A DNA stretch of 64,000 nt from Escherichia coli (GTDB taxonomy: Bacteria; Pseudomonadota; Gammaproteobacteria; Enterobacterales; Enterobacteriaceae), in the NCBI RefSeq assembly GCF_029227855.1, contig NZ_CP074356.1. One strand, 5' to 3'. Position numbers and translations under genes: made by a program. Shown here in pieces: positions 7,683 through 50,906 of the stretch (position 1 is the first letter of the stretch; each line of letters opens with the position of its first letter). Under the pieces are notes generated by a model, which searched no databases, had not been told where the DNA came from, and was given only the letters and a program-made list of their open reading frames with translations.

Positions 7683-8365
7683 TCTGCGGCATCTCCATAA
7701 ACAGAAGGCAAGTTAAGTTCTCTTGCACCCTGCGCGCTATTTATCCATGCATACATTTCAGCGTTGCTGTGAATTGCCAGTCGACGCATCGCACTGTTTT
7801 TTTGGGCGCTGATAGTTTTATTACTTTTCTTAAGCAATGAAGCTATCTGGTTGATGCCCCATCCTTTACCTAATAGCCGCAGTACCTTGCGCTCTGAAAG
7901 AGTGAGAATGACGGAGCGATAGCTAAAATCATGAGTTTCAGTCATTGCCGGAGAGGTCAGCATGGCGCTGATACGCTCTGCGTGCGTATTGCCGGAACGT
8001 ACGGTCTTGACCAGATTCTCAATGGGTTCAACATCAGACAATAACGTCGCCGTAGGGCACATGAGCAATTCTACTGCCTGGGAATACCAGGAGCGTGACA
8101 CCATGAAAACCCAGTGAATTTCCCGATATTGCGAGATTAAAGAATAATAATGTTCACAAACAGAACGTGGATCTTCACTTTCACCGGCTAAATCAGCAAT
8201 GACTAATCCGGAACGACGTAATTGTAATAAGGTAAGGTCCTCCGCAGAGGCGCTGGATATTATTTCATATTCAGGGAAGTGAGTCCTCATGACCTCTTTT
8301 AACCCTGCTTGCATAACAGGTATTTTACTGATAACAATTCCATTTTTGCAGCATCCTGGCAACAT
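7640..8365 (-). CDS. yjjQ: LuxR-family regulator YjjQ
   Basis: 241 aa with C-terminal LuxR HTH ([23 protein letters not shown]); upstream of and overlapping bglJ. Confidence 0.85.
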
Positions 8366-8983
8366 ATTTCCTCCACATCCACTGTCTAAAAATCATGATG
8401 GTTTATTCAGGATATTCATTCCTTAAATGTTTCCAGCAAATTAATAGATTAAGCGAATAAATTATCCTTAGCATTCACTTTCATATCAGCATACTCCTGC
8501 TGCACAACAACTCCACTGCATGTGTCAGAAGGTTAGCATCAAATGATAACCTGGTGAAATAGCCTGGAGACATTTAAAATATCTACATTAAGTTGTTAGA
8601 AATACTTAATGAAAAACAGAATTCTCATTCATTTAATTTATAATTAACTGATATCCCTTCCCGCAGAATGCAAAATCACACAATCAATATTTATTCAATA
8701 AAATCTGATAGTTTTAACTTGTAAAAATTAAAAAACGCGCCCAGTTATCTTTTATCCTGATTCGTAAAGGCTAAACAATAAATTCATTATAGTGATAATA
8801 TTCATGTGATAATTTGTTTGCGACGAGAGATAATTCGCTTTTTATCACCGAGCTTCTCCTGATAACCAGGATTAATCAGCGCAATTTTGATCTTAACCTA
8901 CCGCAAAACAACCGTGCTTCATGATACAAATGGATTCTCATTATCTGAACAATACGCAGCACGTCTATGACAAAGGGCGAGTT
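8366..8983. promoter_or_regulatory. AT-rich divergent yjjQ-bglJ / yjjP control region, probably H-NS-silenced
   Basis: About 600 nt of very AT-rich non-coding DNA between divergent genes; H-NS silencing of yjjQ-bglJ is recalled from K-12. Confidence 0.4.
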
Positions 8984-20313: not shown

Positions 20314-20760
20314 TTATTCATTATCGCCCGGGATGTCTTCTTGTCGGGAATTACCCAGAGCAATAAATTCCTCTAACAGATGGGTTAACTGTTGCATTTT
20401 CTCGGCAGTAAACTGAGCTTCAATCTGCCGATAGGCCTCTTCAATCTGTGTCTGAGCGCGGTTATACAGCGCCTGCCCCTCTTTGGTCAGCGAGATATAG
20501 AGCTTCCGCTGATCATTGATCGGCTTTAATCGCAACACTAAACCGTCGCGTTCCATCCGCGTAAGGATCCCGGTCAGGCTTGGGCGCAAAATGCAGGCGC
20601 GATACGCCAGATCGTGAAAATCCATTGATGGGCTTTCCGCCAGAATACGCACGATGCGCCACTGTTGCTCAGTCAAATTATGCCGTTTAACGATTGGGCG
20701 AAAATAACTCATCGCCGCTTCTCGCGCCTGGAGCAACGCAATGGTTAGAGAGTCGTGCAT
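20314..20760 (-). CDS. hpaR: MarR-family repressor of the hpa meta-cleavage operon
   Basis: ORF 20314..20841; the 148-aa form starts MHDSLTIALLQAREAAMSYF; divergent from hpaG. Confidence 0.85.
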   Translation of the reverse strand: MHDSLTIALLQAREAAMSYFRPIVKRHNLTEQQWRIVRILAESPSMDFHDLAYRACILRPSLTGILTRMERDGLVLRLKPINDQRKLYISLTKEGQALYNRAQTQIEEAYRQIEAQFTAEKMQQLTHLLEEFIALGNSRQEDIPGDNE

Positions 20761-21031
20761 TATCTTTCCCCTGAAAAATTCAAAATCATTAATATAGAAA
20801 CAGTTAATCATCACGTTACCGGGACTGCGCTGCCCCTGCAATTCTTCATTTTATCAAAATTGAGCATGTTTTGTTAACTTGCTGATATTTAATATTTTAT
20901 TATCTTTAAATGTAAATAGTTTGTTAATTAGATCACATTTACATCACTTACTTTTGCCAAACTACGCAATCGGGAATAAAAGTAATCATTAACATATTAA
21001 TGATTAAGATGATCGAATCCGAGGAGTGGTA

Positions 21032-22321
21032 ATGAAAGGCACTATCTTCGCCGTAGCGTTGAACCATCGCAGCCAGCTTGATGCATGGCAGGAAGCGTTC
21101 CAGCAATCCCCCTACAAAACCCCGCCTAAAACTGCGGTCTGGTTTATTAAACCGCGCAATACGGTGATTGGTTGCGGTGAACCGATTCCCTTTCCACAGG
21201 GTGAAAAAGTACTGAGCGGTGCGACTGTTGCGCTGATTGTGGGGAAAACGGCGACGAAAGTACGTGAAGAAGATGCGGCAGAGTACATCGCCGGATATGC
21301 GCTGGCTAACGACGTCAGCCTGCCGGAAGAGAGCTTTTACCGCCCGGCAATCAAAGCAAAATGTCGTGATGGATTCTGCCCCATTGGCGAAACCGTGGCT
21401 CCCAGCAATGTCGATAATCTGACTATCTATACCGAGATCAACGGGCGTCCTGCCGATCATTGGAACACCGCCGATTTACAACGTAACGCCGCGCAGTTGC
21501 TGAGCGCTCTGAGCGAATTTGCCACGCTGAATCCAGGCGATGCCATTCTGCTCGGCACGCCACAGGCGCGCGTGGAAATACAGCCAGGCGATCGCGTGCG
21601 TGTTCTCGCAGAAGGTTTCCCGCCACTGGAAAATCCGGTAGTGGACGAACGTGAAGTGACCACGCGCAAGAGCTTCCCAACGCAGCCACACCCGCACGGC
21701 ACGCTGTTTGCCCTCGGCCTGAACTACGCCGACCACGCCAGCGAACTGGAATTTAAGCCACCGGAAGAACCGCTGGTGTTCCTGAAAGCGCCGAATACCC
21801 TCACTGGCGATAACCAGACCTCCGTGCGCCCGAACAATATTGAATACATGCACTACGAAGCGGAGCTGGTGGTAGTTATTGGCAAGCAGGCGCGTAACGT
21901 CAGCGAAGCCGATGCCATGGATTATGTCGCGGGCTACACCGTGTGTAACGACTACGCCATTCGCGACTATCTGGAAAACTACTACCGCCCTAACCTGCGG
22001 GTAAAAAGCCGCGACGGACTGACGCCGATGCTTTCAACCATCGTGCCGAAAGAGGCGATCCCGGACCCGCATAATCTGACCCTTCGCACCTTCGTCAACG
22101 GCGAGTTACGCCAGCAAGGCACCACCGCCGATCTGATCTTCAGCGTGCCCTTCCTGATCGCCTACTTAAGCGAATTTATGACCCTGAATCCGGGCGACAT
22201 GATCGCCACCGGCACACCAAAAGGCTTATCTGACGTGGTGCCTGGCGATGAAGTAGTGGTGGAAGTAGAAGGCGTGGGCCGCCTGGTGAACCGAATTGTG
22301 AGTGAGGAAACAGCGAAATGA
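21032..22321 (+). CDS. hpaG: Bifunctional 5-oxopent-3-ene-1,2,5-tricarboxylate decarboxylase / 2-hydroxyhepta-2,4-diene-1,7-dioate isomerase
   Basis: About 429 aa with two tandem FAH-fold halves; first gene of the hpaGEDFHI order. Confidence 0.85.
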   Translation: MKGTIFAVALNHRSQLDAWQEAFQQSPYKTPPKTAVWFIKPRNTVIGCGEPIPFPQGEKVLSGATVALIVGKTATKVREEDAAEYIAGYALANDVSLPEESFYRPAIKAKCRDGFCPIGETVAPSNVDNLTIYTEINGRPADHWNTADLQRNAAQLLSALSEFATLNPGDAILLGTPQARVEIQPGDRVRVLAEGFPPLENPVVDEREVTTRKSFPTQPHPHGTLFALGLNYADHASELEFKPPEEPLVFLKAPNTLTGDNQTSVRPNNIEYMHYEAELVVVIGKQARNVSEADAMDYVAGYTVCNDYAIRDYLENYYRPNLRVKSRDGLTPMLSTIVPKEAIPDPHNLTLRTFVNGELRQQGTTADLIFSVPFLIAYLSEFMTLNPGDMIATGTPKGLSDVVPGDEVVVEVEGVGRLVNRIVSEETAK

Positions 22322-35200: not shown

Positions 35201-35234
35201 GGCCGCCATGTGGCGGCCTGAATTATTTTTTGTT
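35201..35234 (+). terminator. Terminator hairpin between convergent yjiA and brnA
   Basis: ggccgccatgtggcggcc inverted repeat followed by tgaattattttttg. Confidence 0.5.
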
Positions 35235-35525
35235 CTGATCGCGCAGCATCGCTTCACGTAAAATTGCGTTCAGGCGAGTTTGATAGCCTTTACCTGGTCG
35301 CTTCAACCATTCCATCACATCAGCATCAATACGCACCGAAGCCTGAGTTTTCAATGGCCGATAAAACTTACCGCGTTCGGCGTTAGACCATTGCTCATCG
35401 CTGGAAGGTGGGATATCACTGTAATCAATATCTTCGTCGGATTTATTCGTCAGCGCCTTCAGTTCGGCCTCATGCTGCACATCGAGTGTAGAGGAGGTCC
35501 CTCGTTTATGTTTAACCATGCTCAT
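35223..35525 (-). CDS. brnA: BrnA-like antitoxin (DUF4415-type small DNA-binding protein)
   Basis: ORF 35223..35666; about 100 aa from MSMVKHKRG...; C-terminus ...RIDADVMEWLKRPGKGYQTRLNAILREAM matches the BrnA family; start overlaps brnT stop. Confidence 0.7.
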   Translation of the reverse strand: MSMVKHKRGTSSTLDVQHEAELKALTNKSDEDIDYSDIPPSSDEQWSNAERGKFYRPLKTQASVRIDADVMEWLKRPGKGYQTRLNAILREAMLRDQNKK

Positions 35526-35808
35526 AGCGATTCCTCTCTTTACGATCTGCTTTTCGTGCACTGATGATTCGAATAATTTCATTTCCGCTTTCGAAACGGA
35601 TGGTATGCGCAACCAGAATAACCACGATGCCGTAAACCAGGCCGATTGTCTGCCAGCGATACTCACCGTTTTCTATGCGTTCTTGCTGTGACAAATGTTG
35701 TGGATCATCAAACAATAACACCGCATCTTCAAAGCGGATGCCATGTTTCACCCGATTACTTTTGGCCTTGTTTTCATCCCATTCAAACTCCATTGGCATA
35801 ATTGCCAT
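35512..35808 (-). CDS. brnT: BrnT-like toxin (DUF497, RelE-fold ribonuclease)
   Basis: ORF 35512..35826 (TTG start); from first ATG: MAIMPMEFEWDENKAKSNRVKHGIRFEDA...IRIISARKADRKERNRYE, the BrnT signature. Confidence 0.7.
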   Translation of the reverse strand: MAIMPMEFEWDENKAKSNRVKHGIRFEDAVLLFDDPQHLSQQERIENGEYRWQTIGLVYGIVVILVAHTIRFESGNEIIRIISARKADRKERNRYEHG

Positions 35809-35997
35809 CCCTAATTGTATATACAAAAATGTATCTACAATTATTCTGCAATTATAGCGTTGATGTTGGAAATAGCATCACGTTTCGAATAATCAACCAT
35901 GAAATTGACAATGAGTAAGTTGGACTTGATTCATCCAATAGAATTTCTCGCCTGACATGGCACACTAAACACCTCGCTGTCGGGTAATGACTCCAAC

Positions 35998-36500
35998 TTA
36001 CTGATAGTGTTTTATGTTCAGATAATGCCCGATGACCTTGTCATGCAGCTCCACCGATTTTGAGAACGACAGTGACTTCCGTCCCAGCCTTGCCAGATGT
36101 TGTCTCAGATTCAGATTATGTCGCTCAATGCGCTGAGTGTAACGCTTGCTGATAACGTGCAGCTTTCCCTTCAGGCGTGATTCATACAGCGGCCAGCCAT
36201 CCGTCATCTATACTACGACCTCAAAGGCCGACAGCAGGCTCAGAAGACGCTCCAGTGTGGCCAGAGTGCGTTCACCGAAGACGTGGCCACAACCGTCTTC
36301 CGAAGCCTGTCATACGCGTAAAACAGCCAGCGCTGGCGCGATTTAGCCCCGACATAGCCCCACTGTTCGTCCATTTCCGCGCAGATAATCACATCACTGC
36401 CCGGTTGTATGCGCGAGGTTACCGACTGCGGCCTGAGTTTTTTAAGTGACGTAAAACCGTGTTGAGGCCAACGCCCATAATGCGTGCACTGGCGCGACAT
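35998..36500 (-). pseudogene. insB: IS1 insB frame, disrupted (1-nt deletion relative to copy 2 gives a premature stop; split into two ORFs)
   Basis: Track ORFs 36240..36500 and 35998..36207; protein diverges from InsB after ...[12 protein letters not shown] and stops; direct comparison with copy 2 shows a 1-nt gap. Confidence 0.6.
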
Positions 36501-36694
36501 CCGACGCCATTCATGGCCATATCAATGATTTTCTGGTGCGTACCGGGCTGAGAGGCGGTGTAAGTGAACTGCAGTTGCCATGTTTTACGGCAATGAGAGC
36601 AGAGATAGCGCTGATGTCCGGCAGTGCTTTTGCCGTTACGCACCACGCCTTCAGTAGCGGAGCAGGAAGGACATCTGATGGAAATGGAAGCCAC
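36419..36694 (-). CDS. insA: IS1 InsA
   Basis: 91 aa [43 protein letters not shown]. Confidence 0.9.
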
Positions 36695-47237: not shown

Positions 47238-48149
47238 ATGGATGACTGTGGTGCGGTTTTGCATAATATTGAAACTAAATGGCTTTATGATTTTCTGACC
47301 CTGGAAAAATGCCGCAATTTTTCCCAGGCAGCAGTCAGTCGCAACGTCTCGCAACCGGCATTCAGCCGCCGCATCCGTGCGCTGGAACAGGCGATTGGCG
47401 TTGAATTGTTTAACCGCCAGGTGACGCCGCTGCAACTCTCGGAACAAGGTAAAATATTCCATTCGCAGATCCGCCATCTGTTGCAACAGTTAGAGAGCAA
47501 CCTTGCAGAACTCCGTGGTGGCAGCGATTACGCGCAACGCAAAATTAAAATAGCCGCTGCACACTCTCTTTCCCTCGGGCTGTTACCGTCCATTATCAGC
47601 CAGATGCCGCCGCTCTTTACCTGGGCAATTGAAGCTATTGATGTCGATGAAGCGGTCGATAAACTGCGTGAAGGGCAAAGTGACTGTATTTTTTCCTTTC
47701 ACGACGAAGATTTGCTGGAAGCGCCGTTTGACCACATTCGCTTATTTGAATCTCAATTGTTCCCCGTTTGCGCCAGTGACGAACACGGAGAAGCACTTTT
47801 TAACCTCGCGCAGCCACACTTTCCGTTACTGAATTACAGCCGCAACTCCTACATGGGGCGATTGATTAATCGCACCCTGACGCGCCACAGTGAGTTAAGT
47901 TTCAGCACCTTTTTTGTCTCTTCGATGAGCGAGCTTTTAAAGCAGGTTGCCCTCGACGGCTGTGGGATTGCCTGGCTACCGGAATACGCCATCCAACAAG
48001 AAATTCGCAGCGGGCAGCTCGTTGTACTGAATCGGGACGAACTGGTGATCCCGATTCAGGCCTATGCATACCGGATGAATACCCGCATGAATCCAGTTGC
48101 CGAACGCTTCTGGCGTGAACTGCGCGAGCTGGAGATTGTGCTTAGCTGA
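47238..48149 (+). CDS. hypT: LysR-family hypochlorite-responsive regulator HypT (YjiE)
   Basis: 303 aa with N-terminal LysR HTH. Confidence 0.85.
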
Positions 48150-48534
48150 CATTCTCCAGCGTCGCACTGCGCCAACCGCCATTATCCCAGACCAGATCAA
48201 ACGTTAGCGATTCATCGTCGTGATACAGCATTATCTCAAGGCTGATCGCCAGAGTGTGGCAGTACGCTTCTTTCAAATTAACCTGCAACGCCGCAATCCG
48301 TGGCTCATGAAATAACAGTGCAGAACGCAGCTGACGGCAATACCAGCTCTGGAGATGTTTGTCGCTCGGGTTATGCACTTGCCACTCGGGCATGCCTGAA
48401 ACAAGTAATGACGGTAATGCCGAATGAGGAGAATTAAAAAGAGTGAGGAGATCGCTGCATACTGATTTACGCAGCGGTGACGTTTTATTGCCTGAAATTT
48501 CAGGTAAAACAGCCTGAAGTGATTGGCGCATCAT
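48142..48534 (-). CDS. iraD: Anti-adaptor protein IraD (stabilises RpoS)
   Basis: ORF 48142..48543; the 130-aa form starts [25 protein letters not shown]. Confidence 0.8.
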
Positions 48535-49316
48535 TTTGCGCACTCCTGACGTTTAGCAACATATGCGGCTTGCCCTGAACACCGGGCACCACTGTATTGA
48601 TGCTCATTTTCCATAGCCATTCCCTTTTGTTCATTACATCCATGTCAGTCTGAGACAGGCCTGAATCCTGTCAGCAAAGTATAAAACCTTACTTGCCTAT
48701 GAATATCTACTGACTTTTCAGGAAAAAAGTCATGATTTGATAAAAATCATCAAACTCAAAAAAAAACCGCTAGTATATTCTGAATATTCCGAATAGTTAC
48801 GTAGATGAAAATACTTGTCACCACCGCTACTTAATTCCGGTGGGAAATTATTTATTTCCGCATAATCAGCTATGTATTATTTAAAACAATTAGTTTGTAA
48901 ATAATATAAATTGATAACATATCAAATACATCAAAAATACCATTCACAGGCATTATTAATATAGACATCAATATAGCAACATCAAATTCCAATTAGTAAT
49001 AAGATATGCTTTTAAATTGCATGCAAATAATTTTAAATGAGCGTTTTTTGATACTTTAGAGTGTTTCCCACCATTTAATATCACTGTGTAGAGTTGATAT
49101 CACTACAACAGAAACATGCATGTCATTTGTTTACTTCTCTTTTTACTACAGAAAAATTTATCTATTTTTCTAAGCATCAGTGAAATACTCATAAAGGTAA
49201 CTATTATGTCTATGCCATTAAGCAATGCCCTTCAGAGTTAAATTATTACAGATAATCACTTCCTTCATCATCCAAAAGTCGACAGTGAGTTAACACGTAA
49301 ACATGAACGTGCACGC

Positions 49317-49895
49317 ATGGATACGGAAAATATCTATCTTCCGCCTCTTGCTCGTGGCAATAACCATAATTACGATGGAAAAAGCGTTGTCGAAATTAGA
49401 AAACTTGATATTAGTAAAGAGTCCTGGCCATTTAATTATGTGACAGAAACATGCAGAGAATTCAATGGTATTACAACAACAGGACGTATGCTCTATCGAA
49501 ACTTGAAAATCACCTCAGCTTTAGACGAAATATATGGTGGTATATGTAAAAAGGCGCATGCTGCCACAGAGTTAGCAAAAGGATTACGGCTAAATTTATT
49601 TATGAAAGGCCCTTTCGATCCTGTTGAGGACTATACAGTTCATGAAATAACATTAGGCCCTGGTTGCAATGTTCCTGGTTATGCCGGAACCACGATAGGA
49701 TATATTTCAACCCTTCCAGCTTCTCAGGCAAAAAGATGGACCAATGAGCAGCCAAGGATTGATATCTATATTGATCAGATAATGACGGTAACAGGGGTAG
49801 CAAATTCTTCCGGATTCGCCCTTGCCGCATTACTTAATGCTAATATTGAGTTGGGTAATGACCCAATAATTGGTATAGAAGCCTATCCCGGGTGA
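49317..49895 (+). CDS. Hypothetical protein in the AT-rich iraD-uxuR interval (the position yjiC occupies in K-12)
   Basis: 192-aa ORF, ATG start with in-frame stop 75 nt upstream; preceded by about 770 nt of very AT-rich DNA; identity not recognised. Confidence 0.45.
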   Translation: MDTENIYLPPLARGNNHNYDGKSVVEIRKLDISKESWPFNYVTETCREFNGITTTGRMLYRNLKITSALDEIYGGICKKAHAATELAKGLRLNLFMKGPFDPVEDYTVHEITLGPGCNVPGYAGTTIGYISTLPASQAKRWTNEQPRIDIYIDQIMTVTGVANSSGFALAALLNANIELGNDPIIGIEAYPG

Positions 49896-50092
49896 TGAAA
49901 ATGCACCACTCAAACGTATGACTCTGCAACCGTCATCTCTTCCAGAACTGTTTGAATTAAAAAATGGTGAATGGAATTATATTGGTAAATAACTACCAGG
50001 AAGAATGAGTACTAACATTCAGGTTATACAGATAGCTAAACAATCCCCTGCAATTTACAAAGTAATACTCATTGCGACTTCTTAATTTAAGA

Positions 50093-50121
50093 AAGCGCAA
50101 GGAACGTTTACCCTTGCGCTT
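50093..50121 (-). terminator. Hairpin downstream of uxuR
   Basis: aagcgcaagg aacgtttac ccttgcgctt inverted repeat just past the uxuR stop. Confidence 0.4.
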
Positions 50122-50132
50122 ATTATAATAAG

Positions 50133-50906
50133 TCAGGCGTCGCCTTTATCCAGCGGCCATGAATCAAACAGATAGCCATCAAAATAAATATCGTCAACGT
50201 TCGAGAATTCCAGCAGACGTTGCTTAACGTTTTCCAGATGCTGCCACATTGCCAGCTTCGCCGCTCGGGCATCTTTTTTGATTAACGCGGCGAGGATCTG
50301 TTTGTGATCGCCCAACCACTCTTTGCGATACAGGCTGTCATCCAGATGGCTGTGCAACTGGATCCACATTGGATTGTTTTCCCGCCACTGCCAGGACTGA
50401 CGGAACAGCTCCACCAGCATGCTGTTATGCGTTGCTTCGGCAATAGCGAGATGGAACTGCATGTCACCGCTTTCGCTGCTGCCCGGCGCACTGGAAGCCA
50501 GTTCACGCTCTTCCAGTTGCAATGCCTGACGCATTTTGACGATATCTTCGCGGGTAGCCTGCAGGGCGGCAAACTCGGCGATGTTGCTCTCAAGAAGCTG
50601 TCGCGCCTGCAACAGCTCAAAAGGACCCGCATCATTGCAAACGTTGGCATCCGGACTGTCTGTGTTGTGGCTGCCTGAGCTATCAAGAACATAGATACCG
50701 GCACCCCGGCGCACTTCCACCAGCCCTTTGATCTCCAGCATGATCAGCGCTTCACGTACCACCGTCCGCGTGACATCAAGCATTTCTGCAATTTCACGCT
50801 CCGGCGGCAACCGTTCGCCAGGATTGTACGGCGTCTTTATGATCAGATCGCGGATCATCGCCCCGACTTCCTGGTAAGGTCTTTGCGCAGAGGTGGCAGA
50901 TTTCAT
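50133..50906 (-). CDS. uxuR: GntR/FadR-family repressor UxuR
   Basis: 257 aa MKSATSAQRPYQEVGAMIRDLIIKTPYNPGERLPPEREIAEMLDVTRTVVREAL. Confidence 0.9.
   Translation of the reverse strand: MKSATSAQRPYQEVGAMIRDLIIKTPYNPGERLPPEREIAEMLDVTRTVVREALIMLEIKGLVEVRRGAGIYVLDSSGSHNTDSPDANVCNDAGPFELLQARQLLESNIAEFAALQATREDIVKMRQALQLEERELASSAPGSSESGDMQFHLAIAEATHNSMLVELFRQSWQWRENNPMWIQLHSHLDDSLYRKEWLGDHKQILAALIKKDARAAKLAMWQHLENVKQRLLEFSNVDDIYFDGYLFDSWPLDKGDA

Follow-up and report, generated by a model that had tools for sequence, protein, structure and literature searches.

A well-studied relative of the DNA considered here is the iraD control region of Escherichia coli K-12, in which the gene for IraD, an anti-adapter protein, is served by two promoters, P2 and, at a distance of 280 nt upstream, P1 (Park et al. 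2017, PMC5574718). In that work the P1 fusion spanned nucleotides -547 to -413, the P2 fusion spanned -254 to -133, and a leader fusion began at nucleotide -138. The K-12 leader contains five GGA motifs, four of which are bound by CsrA, and in P2 transcripts the site BS1 has only 3 nt 5' of its GGA; ORF47 (ytiD) and ORF23 are among the small ORFs of this leader that were found to be translated (PMC5574718). A binding site for HusR (YnfL) has also been reported between ytiD and idlP, the gene for an iraD leader peptide (PMC12844172).

On its other side this control region faces yjiC. The DNA between yjiC and iraD in K-12 figures in a list of 78 "promoter islands"; it is scored as H-NS-bound in ChIP-chip data sets (entry "K" in the H-NS column) and is linked to predicted foreign genes (Panyukov & Ozoline 2013, PMC3661553). 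In K-12, AZT induces yjiC 11-fold alongside its divergent neighbours, and ytiC, induced 260-fold, is the gene that responds most strongly to it (PMC11228462). YjiC of K-12 is a protein of 276 residues in the DUF2686 family (Pfam PF10887).

Here we describe the corresponding locus in a 64,000-nt stretch of an E. coli genome (contig NZ_CP074356.1), referred to below as the window. An earlier note, made from the sequence alone, had described about 770 nt of AT-rich non-coding DNA (48544..49316) preceding a 192-aa ORF that it could not assign to a family. We hold with high confidence that the locus consists of a pseudogenised yjiC together with an iraD control region of the K-12 type, with a core that is H-NS-bound in K-12. 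It is an ordinary locus, whose elements are already known, having been annotated or published before.

Results

The iraD control region

The stretch between iraD and yjiC carries the following features, most of them on the minus strand.

48142..48534, minus strand: iraD, anti-adapter protein IraD (RefSeq annotation of the identical sequence; translation)
48531..48614, minus strand: idlP (ORF27), 27-aa iraD leader peptide, the same as in K-12 (RefSeq; mechanism from PMC5574718)
48610..48668, minus strand: putative CsrA-binding segment within the leader of iraD (from the GGA motifs and PMC5574718)
48671..48683, minus strand: putative iraD promoter P2, -10 element TATACT at 48683..48678 (from the fusions of PMC5574718 and the sequence)
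48730..48873, minus strand: ytiD (ORF47), a small ORF of 47 codons within the leader made from P1 (RefSeq; translation)
48767..48782, no strand assigned: HusR (YnfL) binding sequence CCGCTAGTATATTCTG, an exact match to the site in PMC12844172
48870..48920, minus strand: ORF23, or short ytiC (RefSeq; translations; K-12 translation reported in PMC5574718)
48952..48985, minus strand: putative iraD promoter P1, TTGATG, 16 nt, TATATT (promoter scan and PMC5574718)
48953..49205, no strand assigned: divergent core between yjiC and iraD P1 (composition; the promoter island "yjiC(-)/iraD(+)" of PMC3661553)

iraD itself, the stress gene regulated by the AT-rich region, lies just beyond the left edge of the stretch examined. 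Positions 48544 to 48822 show no difference from K-12. Counted from the ATG of iraD, GGA motifs stand at -134, -107, -89 and -78, positions that fit BS1 to BS4, and a fifth, at -12 (48544-48546), overlaps the Shine-Dalgarno (SD) sequence of iraD. The stop of idlP (48531-48614) overlaps the start of iraD at 48534, and both sets of promoter hexamers lie at the distances expected from the K-12 leader (PMC5574718). We note that a consensus promoter scan of the region returned 6 sites against 7.8 expected from shuffled sequence and was by itself uninformative, so the positions of P1 and P2 are taken from the literature; a simple terminator scan of the region made no calls. On this basis P2 transcription would start at about 48671-48672, and P1 transcription at about 48952, giving a leader of approximately 418 nt. 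DnaA is reported to regulate iraD; a search of the region for the exact form of the DnaA-box consensus, TTWTNCACA, found none.

The window does depart from the K-12 leader in its small ORFs. A single SNP at 48871 converts the ATG start of K-12 ytiD into ATA, and ytiD is missing from the canonical ORF list; the same change (TGG to TAG) shortens ORF23 from the 22 codons of K-12 to 16. The small-ORF content therefore differs from that of K-12, since ytiD lacks its ATG and ORF23 is truncated. Some RefSeq records give ytiC in a 32-codon form (48870-48968, minus strand).

If the K-12 findings apply to the window, P1 would direct a leader carrying ORF23/ytiC, ytiD and idlP, all translated in K-12, and P2 would fire from about 48671 on the same minus strand. 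CsrA bound to the GGA sites around the idlP start would block translation of idlP and, through translational coupling, that of iraD. What the earlier note had taken for the long leader of the 192-aa ORF belongs for the most part to iraD, being that gene's minus-strand promoter and leader, in which K-12 has CsrA sites and translates three small ORFs (PMC5574718).

The AT-rich core and H-NS

The AT-richness described in the earlier note is borne out. The GC content is 32.6% over 48544..49316 and 26.5% over the core (48953..49205), and the 300-bp segment starting at 48851, at 25.7%, has the lowest GC content of the whole 64 kb, about 4 standard deviations below the mean for such segments (51.0%, sd 6.2%). 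The stretch is not, however, non-coding: RefSeq records with the identical sequence, including that of E24377A (NC_009801.1, 100% identical to the window over 24 kb), place idlP, ytiD and a small ORF within it, and 49206-49316 constitutes the first 37 codons of yjiC, premature TAA included. A repeat search of the region found only short repeats that are probably due to chance, and PADLOC and PHROGs returned no matches.

The suggestion that this composition marks foreign DNA silenced by H-NS agrees with the K-12 data, where the promoter island is H-NS-positive (PMC3661553), and with the confinement of DUF2686 to Escherichia. Nowhere in the window is the DNA richer in AT than in this island, to which the core between P1 and yjiC belongs; H-NS would occupy that core as it does in K-12, a strain other than that of the window, in which the binding was measured. 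Any acquisition would have to be old, because yjiC occupies the same position in Escherichia albertii. The title of Battesti 2012, as cited in other papers, is in line with the H-NS reading. No mapped transcript covers 48953..49205.

The 192-aa ORF is a fragment of yjiC

The remainder of the stretch, on the plus strand, is accounted for as follows.

49206..49992, plus strand: yjiC pseudogene, DUF2686 family (K-12 alignment; translations; RefSeq "DUF2686 family protein, frameshifted")
49239..49241, plus strand: premature stop at codon 12, with TAA in place of the K-12 CAA (Gln)
49317..49895, plus strand: 192-aa ORF with an ATG start, equal to YjiC Met38-Gly229 followed at once by TGA
49882..49992, plus strand: out-of-frame remnant with the native YjiC C-terminus, ending in PGDENAPLKRMTLQPSSLPELFELKNGEWNYIGK and a stop (frame-2 translation)
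49884..49891, plus strand: junction of a 44-bp deletion, with one copy left of the 8-bp sequence TATCCCGG, which in K-12 is present as two direct-repeat copies 44 bp apart
50093..50121, no strand assigned: GC-rich hairpin, AAGCGCAAGG-N9-CCTTGCGCTT, separating two convergent genes, yjiC and uxuR (RNA fold)

The ORF has exactly the coordinates, ATG start and strand first given for it, and it does sit in the iraD-uxuR slot that yjiC occupies in K-12 while being shorter than YjiC (192 against 276 residues); it is not, however, without a family. The product matches PF10887 (DUF2686, YjfZ/YjiC) with 370.6 bits (E=5.2e-111, against a gathering cut-off of 25 bits), and a protein search thus places it clearly as a DUF2686/YjiC fragment. 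The match extends only over profile positions 46-238 of 285, short of the full length, whereas K-12 YjiC covers 1-285, and this partial coverage follows from the two lesions in the gene. NCBIfam holds no model for YjiC or for the small proteins. Comparison of yjiC alleles shows a doubly disrupted one, already recorded in RefSeq as a frameshifted pseudogene: the ancestral frame runs from the ATG at 49206 to the stop at 49990-49992, it is interrupted at codon 12 by TAA, and at residue 229 the 44-bp deletion then alters the frame, so that the final 47 residues of the 276-aa K-12 protein are lost. Over 48544-50132 the locus is 97.2% identical to K-12 at the nucleotide level.

The nonsense mutation would halt translation from the native start, the 44 bp were probably lost between the direct repeats by replication slippage, and the ORF is the longest ATG-to-stop stretch that survives between the two lesions. 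To judge by the sequence, the ORF most likely gives no functional protein, and the allele appears to be one of loss of function.

The hairpin 3' of yjiC folds with -22.1 kcal/mol (z = -4.3), none of 200 shuffled sequences being equally stable, and is a probable bidirectional terminator, though one for which the simple terminator scan gave no call.

Distribution of the disrupted allele

Among 5,426 complete E. coli genomes, 812 (approximately 15%) carry the exact 46-bp deletion junction, as counted with a 46-bp junction query that is unable to seed on intact yjiC alleles, and the codon-12 TAA in its exact 60-bp context is found in roughly 500-660 genomes. The locus as such is borne by 4,910 genomes. 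Each lesion also occurs without the other: two alleles have the deletion only (L007 and P0018) and one has the stop only (L006). The allele in the window is of the L007 type with the stop added and 2 further differences. These observations fit a stepwise decay, since each lesion occurs alone and the window allele amounts to L007 plus the stop. Apart from the deletion, the 3' 385 bp are the same as in K-12; together with the commonness of the allele, this leaves little sign of long decay. Such a pattern need not point to function, as a recent event or recombination could account for it. Natural knock-outs of yjiC are recurrent, and comprise the 44-bp deletion (15% of genomes), the codon-12 stop and IS1 insertions.

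DUF2686 orthologues and a possible fold for intact YjiC

Intact orthologues of YjiC, 273-276 aa long, are encoded at the same locus in K-12, divergent E. coli and E. albertii, and a comparison of K-12 with E. albertii yjiC gives a dN/dS of 0.30 for the whole gene and of 0.23 for its C-terminal half, indicative of purifying selection. The idea that the 276-aa K-12 form might itself be the aberrant one is contradicted by the orthologues of 273-276 aa in E. albertii and divergent E. coli. Conservation across the family is highest in the C-terminus that the window allele has lost. Searches of 5.8 billion clustered proteins and of 1.84 billion representatives found DUF2686 proteins in E. coli, Shigella and E. 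albertii only; the exhaustive HMMER search of the 1.84 billion representatives returned nothing but fragments from Escherichia and two junk proteins of repetitive sequence, with no distant relatives. The E. coli paralogue YjfZ (264 aa, DUF2686) is 42% identical to YjiC over 226 aa and shares the conserved C-terminal block; unlike yjiC, its gene adjoins rplI/ytfB, outside the window, and is intact in K-12. Published "YjfZ" qPCR primers match yjiC, and one of these primers has two mismatches to the window allele.

An AlphaFold prediction from 10 close YjiC sequences was unusable (pLDDT 34); with YjfZ added (8 sequences) the mean pLDDT was 55. This low-confidence model shows the topology of the GNAT fold, a mixed beta-sheet with a beta4-alpha3-beta5-alpha4-beta6-beta7 core, preceded by an extra N-terminal region of approximately 140 residues that is poorly modelled. 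Intact YjiC may therefore have a GNAT-like acyltransferase fold, from which the deletion would remove C-terminal elements: the 47 deleted residues would form alpha4, beta6 and beta7 in the model, leaving the window allele without the C-terminal third of that fold. At the level of sequence YjiC and YjfZ are unlike GNAT acyl-CoA N-acyltransferases such as the toxins TacT/AtaT, which acetylate tRNA, the siderophore acyltransferase DfoC and SpeG, to which they show no sequence or profile similarity. Pfam hmmscan at E<=10 reported no GNAT family for either protein, a PDB profile search with the two gave no GNAT match, and hhalign of YjiC/YjfZ against a RimI profile gave a probability of 0.3%, both profiles being shallow. 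In the place of motif A (Q/R-x-x-G-x-G/A), YjiC has the non-canonical loop TGVANSSGF.

Discussion

We considered whether the 192-aa ORF might be a functional short isoform of YjiC starting at Met38, with the allele kept because it is useful. The ORF is intact and retains the DUF2686 core with the predicted beta4-alpha3 loop, the deletion junction is shared by 812 genomes, and a database cluster of 239-aa proteins (P0015) begins at the same methionine. Such an isoform would nevertheless lack the 47 C-terminal residues that are most conserved, and with them the predicted elements alpha4, beta6 and beta7; nothing resembling an SD sequence stands 5' of the start at 49317, and 14 nt upstream, at 49303, lies an ATG that is out of frame. 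PGAP marks the locus as a pseudogene, and two independent inactivating lesions in one allele, each also found solo, are typical of decay. We consider a functional isoform very improbable, though a 192-aa product may be made at a low level. Short indels are frequent assembly errors, and an artefact of sequencing or assembly hiding a really intact yjiC would have that general tendency in its favour; it is contradicted by the clean loss of 44 bp between direct repeats with no homopolymer slip, by the recurrence of the same 46-bp junction in 812 independently assembled complete genomes and by that of the TAA context in hundreds, which together make an artefact a negligible prospect.

The earlier note also raised the prospect that the AT-rich stretch holds regulatory elements or a small RNA. 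Regulatory elements are indeed there, in the form of the iraD control region; an undescribed sRNA, or a plus-strand cis-regulatory leader of yjiC, strikes us as very improbable. A yjiC promoter and a short 5' UTR must admittedly sit within the approximately 250 bp that separate P1 from the yjiC start at 49206, the promoter scan found a sigma70-like match at 49180-49207, and in K-12 yjiC shares the AZT induction of its divergent neighbours. Against this, promoter-like sites are no commoner in the region than in shuffled sequence, the stretch from 48544 to about 48952 is already explained by the minus-strand iraD leader, and promoter islands reportedly yield little productive transcription (PMC3661553). 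An Rfam search of 48000-50400 at E<=1 gave only sub-threshold eukaryotic snoRNA and lncRNA noise, and an sRNA is unsupported because no Rfam family matches. A pseudogenised yjiC facing an iraD control region remains our reading of the locus.

A more speculative proposal concerns the intact protein. YjiC and YjfZ might form a highly divergent, fast-evolving and Escherichia-restricted branch of the GNAT acyltransferases, with yjiC transcribed away from iraD and co-induced with it under replication stress; this is possible but unlikely. Were it true, the natural knock-outs would mean that the enzyme is costly in some lineages, as are the structurally similar GNAT toxins TacT/AtaT, and the copy in the window would be dead.

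The locus itself is of little importance, and what the analysis removes is a false lead, for it contains neither an orphan gene nor a giant leader. A biofilm defect has reportedly been linked to yjiC. That yjiC is dead in approximately 15% of complete E. coli genomes matters wherever the gene is used as a marker or yjiC phenotypes are considered. Lastly, DUF2686 as a possible GNAT-fold family, predicted from a model, may provide a testable start for two E. coli y-genes.

Results

The 192-aa ORF at 49317-49895 is present, and the earlier note, which could not place it in a family, was right to suspect that it is too short for YjiC (276 aa in K-12). A protein search with its product returned a clear match to DUF2686, the YjfZ/YjiC family (Pfam PF10887, E=5.2e-111), over profile positions 46-238 of 285 only; K-12 YjiC spans the entire profile. 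With this match, and with RefSeq labelling 49242-49992 'DUF2686 family protein, frameshifted' both in E24377A and in other strains of identical sequence, the ORF is not unrecognised but part of a pseudogene already flagged. Alignment with the K-12 locus and translation place the ancestral yjiC start at 49206. Codon 12 is TAA in the window (49239-49241) and CAA in K-12, and relative to the K-12 locus a 44-bp segment is absent between two copies of TATCCCGG, leaving a single copy at 49884-49891. Through the resulting frameshift, TGA directly follows Gly229, and the native C-terminus (ending in PGDENAPLKRMTLQPSSLPELFELKNGEWNYIGK and the stop codon) is still readable out of frame, to 49992. Because these two lesions bound it, the ORF corresponds to YjiC Met38-Gly229, the longest ATG-to-stop stretch between them. 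Translation of the fragment is doubtful, since inspection of the sequence ahead of 49317 found nothing resembling a Shine-Dalgarno sequence and an out-of-frame ATG lies 5' of the ORF start, at 49303. We also note an exact 13-nt direct repeat, ACAGAAACATGCA, at 49108-49120 (5' of yjiC) and 49443-49455 (within yjiC), which is probably due to chance.

The 24 kb around the locus matches, at 100% identity, the chromosome of E. coli O139:H28 strain E24377A (NC_009801.1; window position p is NC_009801.1 position 4962431-p), with the gene order iadA, hypT, iraD, the region studied here, uxuR and uxuB. Among 5,426 complete E. coli genomes, 4,910 contain this 1,589-bp region, 893 of them at an identity of at least 99% and 4,004 at 95-99%. 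A 46-bp query centred on the deletion junction, for which intact alleles cannot supply the 28-nt seed, had hits in 812 genomes, every one at 100% identity. For the TAA codon, an estimate based on ranks in a listing sampled at even spacing puts the genomes with its exact 60-bp context at roughly 500-660. The deletion occurs without the stop in L007, a compared locus from another genome that keeps Gln12 (matching protein cluster P0018, 229 aa), and the stop without the deletion in a second such locus, L006, where the PGAP annotation is a 264-aa protein whose ATT start codon lies just past the TAA. Compared with the L007 type, the window allele has the stop and two further substitutions; a history of deletion and then further decay would fit these alleles. 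The same stop sits in L006 within a sequence background that is more divergent (dS ~0.10), which points to recombination or recurrence. All 28 yjiC substitutions relative to K-12 fall within 49239-49608; in 49609-49992 the only difference is the 44-bp deletion. This mosaic suggests a recombination break within yjiC.

Several other features of the locus and its surroundings were noted. In several other E. coli genomes (matches H1, H7 and H25) an IS1 element interrupts the region, and such insertions are a further natural route of disruption of the yjiC/iraD upstream region. In E. albertii CP034212.1 (L009; 1644-4822), iraD and yjiC come directly after iadA, without hypT between iadA and iraD. 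RefSeq annotation of the source strain shows a truncated type 1 fimbrial cluster at ~57680-59276, where an IS1 transposase adjoins a partial, N-terminally truncated fimD and the nanC-fimD interval is without fimB/E/A/I/C. The mdtM-yjiA interval (~35223-36694) holds a frameshifted IS1 remnant, then a BrnT/BrnA toxin-antitoxin pair. Between the convergent yjiC and uxuR lies a hairpin that probably acts as a bidirectional terminator:

50093-50121, GC-rich hairpin, -22.1 kcal/mol, z=-4.3

The AT-richness of the DNA between iraD and yjiC is far beyond the local range. GC content is 32.6% over 48544-49316 and 26.5% in its core (48953-49205), and the claim of an AT-rich island is borne out by the lowest 300-bp GC in the whole 64 kb, 25.7% from 48851 (mean 51.0%, sd 6.2%). 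Other 300-bp stretches below 33% GC lie at 8351-8900, 20751-21050, 59301-59700 and 60351-60750. According to Battesti et al., iraD expression is reportedly inhibited by H-NS. Among 78 'promoter islands' is the intergenic region between yjiC and iraD of K-12, which was scored as linked to predicted foreign genes and, in the data sets of Kahramanoglou and Oshima, as bound by H-NS (PMC3661553), so the suggestion of H-NS silencing is sound.

Most of 48544-49205 is the iraD control region, on the opposite strand. Numbered from the iraD start codon, P2 was placed by Park et al. (PMC5574718) between nt -254 and -133, the leader beginning at about -138, and P1 280 nt further upstream (fusion -547 to -413). 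In the window, where the iraD ATG is at 48534, these fusions and the sequence give the putative starts below, listed with a reported HusR site located by sequence match:

near 48671-48672, minus strand, iraD P2 start, 3' of TATACT (48683-48678)
near 48952, minus strand, iraD P1 start, 3' of TTGATG-16-TATATT (48985-48958)
48767-48782, HusR site, CCGCTAGTATATTCTG

The P1 leader in K-12 contains ORF23, ORF47 (ytiD) and ORF27 (idlP), all shown to be translated, and the idlP stop overlaps the iraD start; by binding GGA sites around the idlP start, CsrA represses iraD via translational coupling (PMC5574718). GGA motifs occur in the window at -134, -107, -89, -78 and -12 relative to the iraD start, matching that description, and 48544-48822 is identical to K-12. 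AZT induces ytiC 260-fold and ytiD 33-fold, which places both with the most strongly induced transcripts, and ytiC is described as sharing a transcript with iraD (PMC11228462). Control of iraD has also been reported for ppGpp, DnaA and SspA. What had been read as a non-coding leader is thus mostly iraD promoter and leader with ORFs translated in K-12; the regulatory elements proposed for it are there, as P1, P2 and the CsrA and HusR sites, and the small RNA is not supported, as no Rfam family matched the region. A SNP at 48871 (C>T relative to K-12, plus strand) changes the start of ytiD (48730-48873, minus strand) from ATG to ATA and codon 17 of ORF23 (48870-48920, minus strand) from TGG to TAG, shortening it from 22 to 16 codons. 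This sequence is also found in two compared loci (L001 and L003), and RefSeq still annotates ytiD in the window despite the ATA start.

Discussion

The observation itself is real, and an ordinary situation accounts for it: a yjiC allele that is disrupted twice and annotated in RefSeq adjoins the well-characterised iraD regulatory region. YjiC orthologues of 273-276 aa occupy the same iraD-uxuR slot in E. albertii (61% identity) and a divergent E. coli (63%), and given the synteny with E. albertii the island is therefore old. DUF2686 is a tiny family. Two protein searches on a very large scale returned only Escherichia/Shigella sequences and fragments, and an acquired or lineage-specific island is consistent with this confinement to Escherichia. 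It likewise agrees with the match of the IraD product to Pfam GPW_gp25, a phage baseplate protein family (in E. albertii L009 and in L011).

Intact yjiC is a constrained yet fast-evolving gene, with a dN/dS between K-12 and E. albertii of 0.30 (0.23 in the C-terminal half). As to function, the literature offers only hints: a transposon insertion in yjiC lowered biofilm in an atypical EPEC strain (PMC4100040), and in K-12 AZT induces yjiC 11-fold in a LexA-independent manner (PMC11228462). We note that the qPCR and Sanger primers and the probe of a published set of E. coli markers named 'YjfZ' (PMC11057252) hit yjiC, both in the window and in K-12:

49477-49498, 49512-49541, 49569-49590, 49214-49235 and 49922-49941, 'YjfZ' primer/probe matches in yjiC

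They have no match at up to 3 mismatches in the 49-kb K-12 region holding yjfZ. Two positions of the qPCR reverse primer mismatch the window allele, from which the Sanger primers would yield an amplicon shorter by 44 bp.

No relatives of YjiC were found in PDB, NCBIfam, PADLOC or PHROG; its paralogue is YjfZ (42% identity). AlphaFold gave a pLDDT of 34 with close YjiC sequences alone and, with YjfZ added, a mean pLDDT of 55 and a pTM of 0.57, with 67-89 across most of residues 141-276. A GNAT relationship gained no support from Pfam at E<=10 and 0.3% probability from hhalign against a RimI profile, both profiles being shallow. A GNAT-like fold is predicted for intact YjiC, with moderate support. 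In the model, the deletion takes out helix 231-236 and the strands at ~240, 251-255, 264-267 and 270-273, the best-conserved and best-modelled parts. This predicted GNAT-like fold of the DUF2686 family is the sole mildly new item, and it would concern intact yjiC alleles elsewhere rather than the copy in the window.
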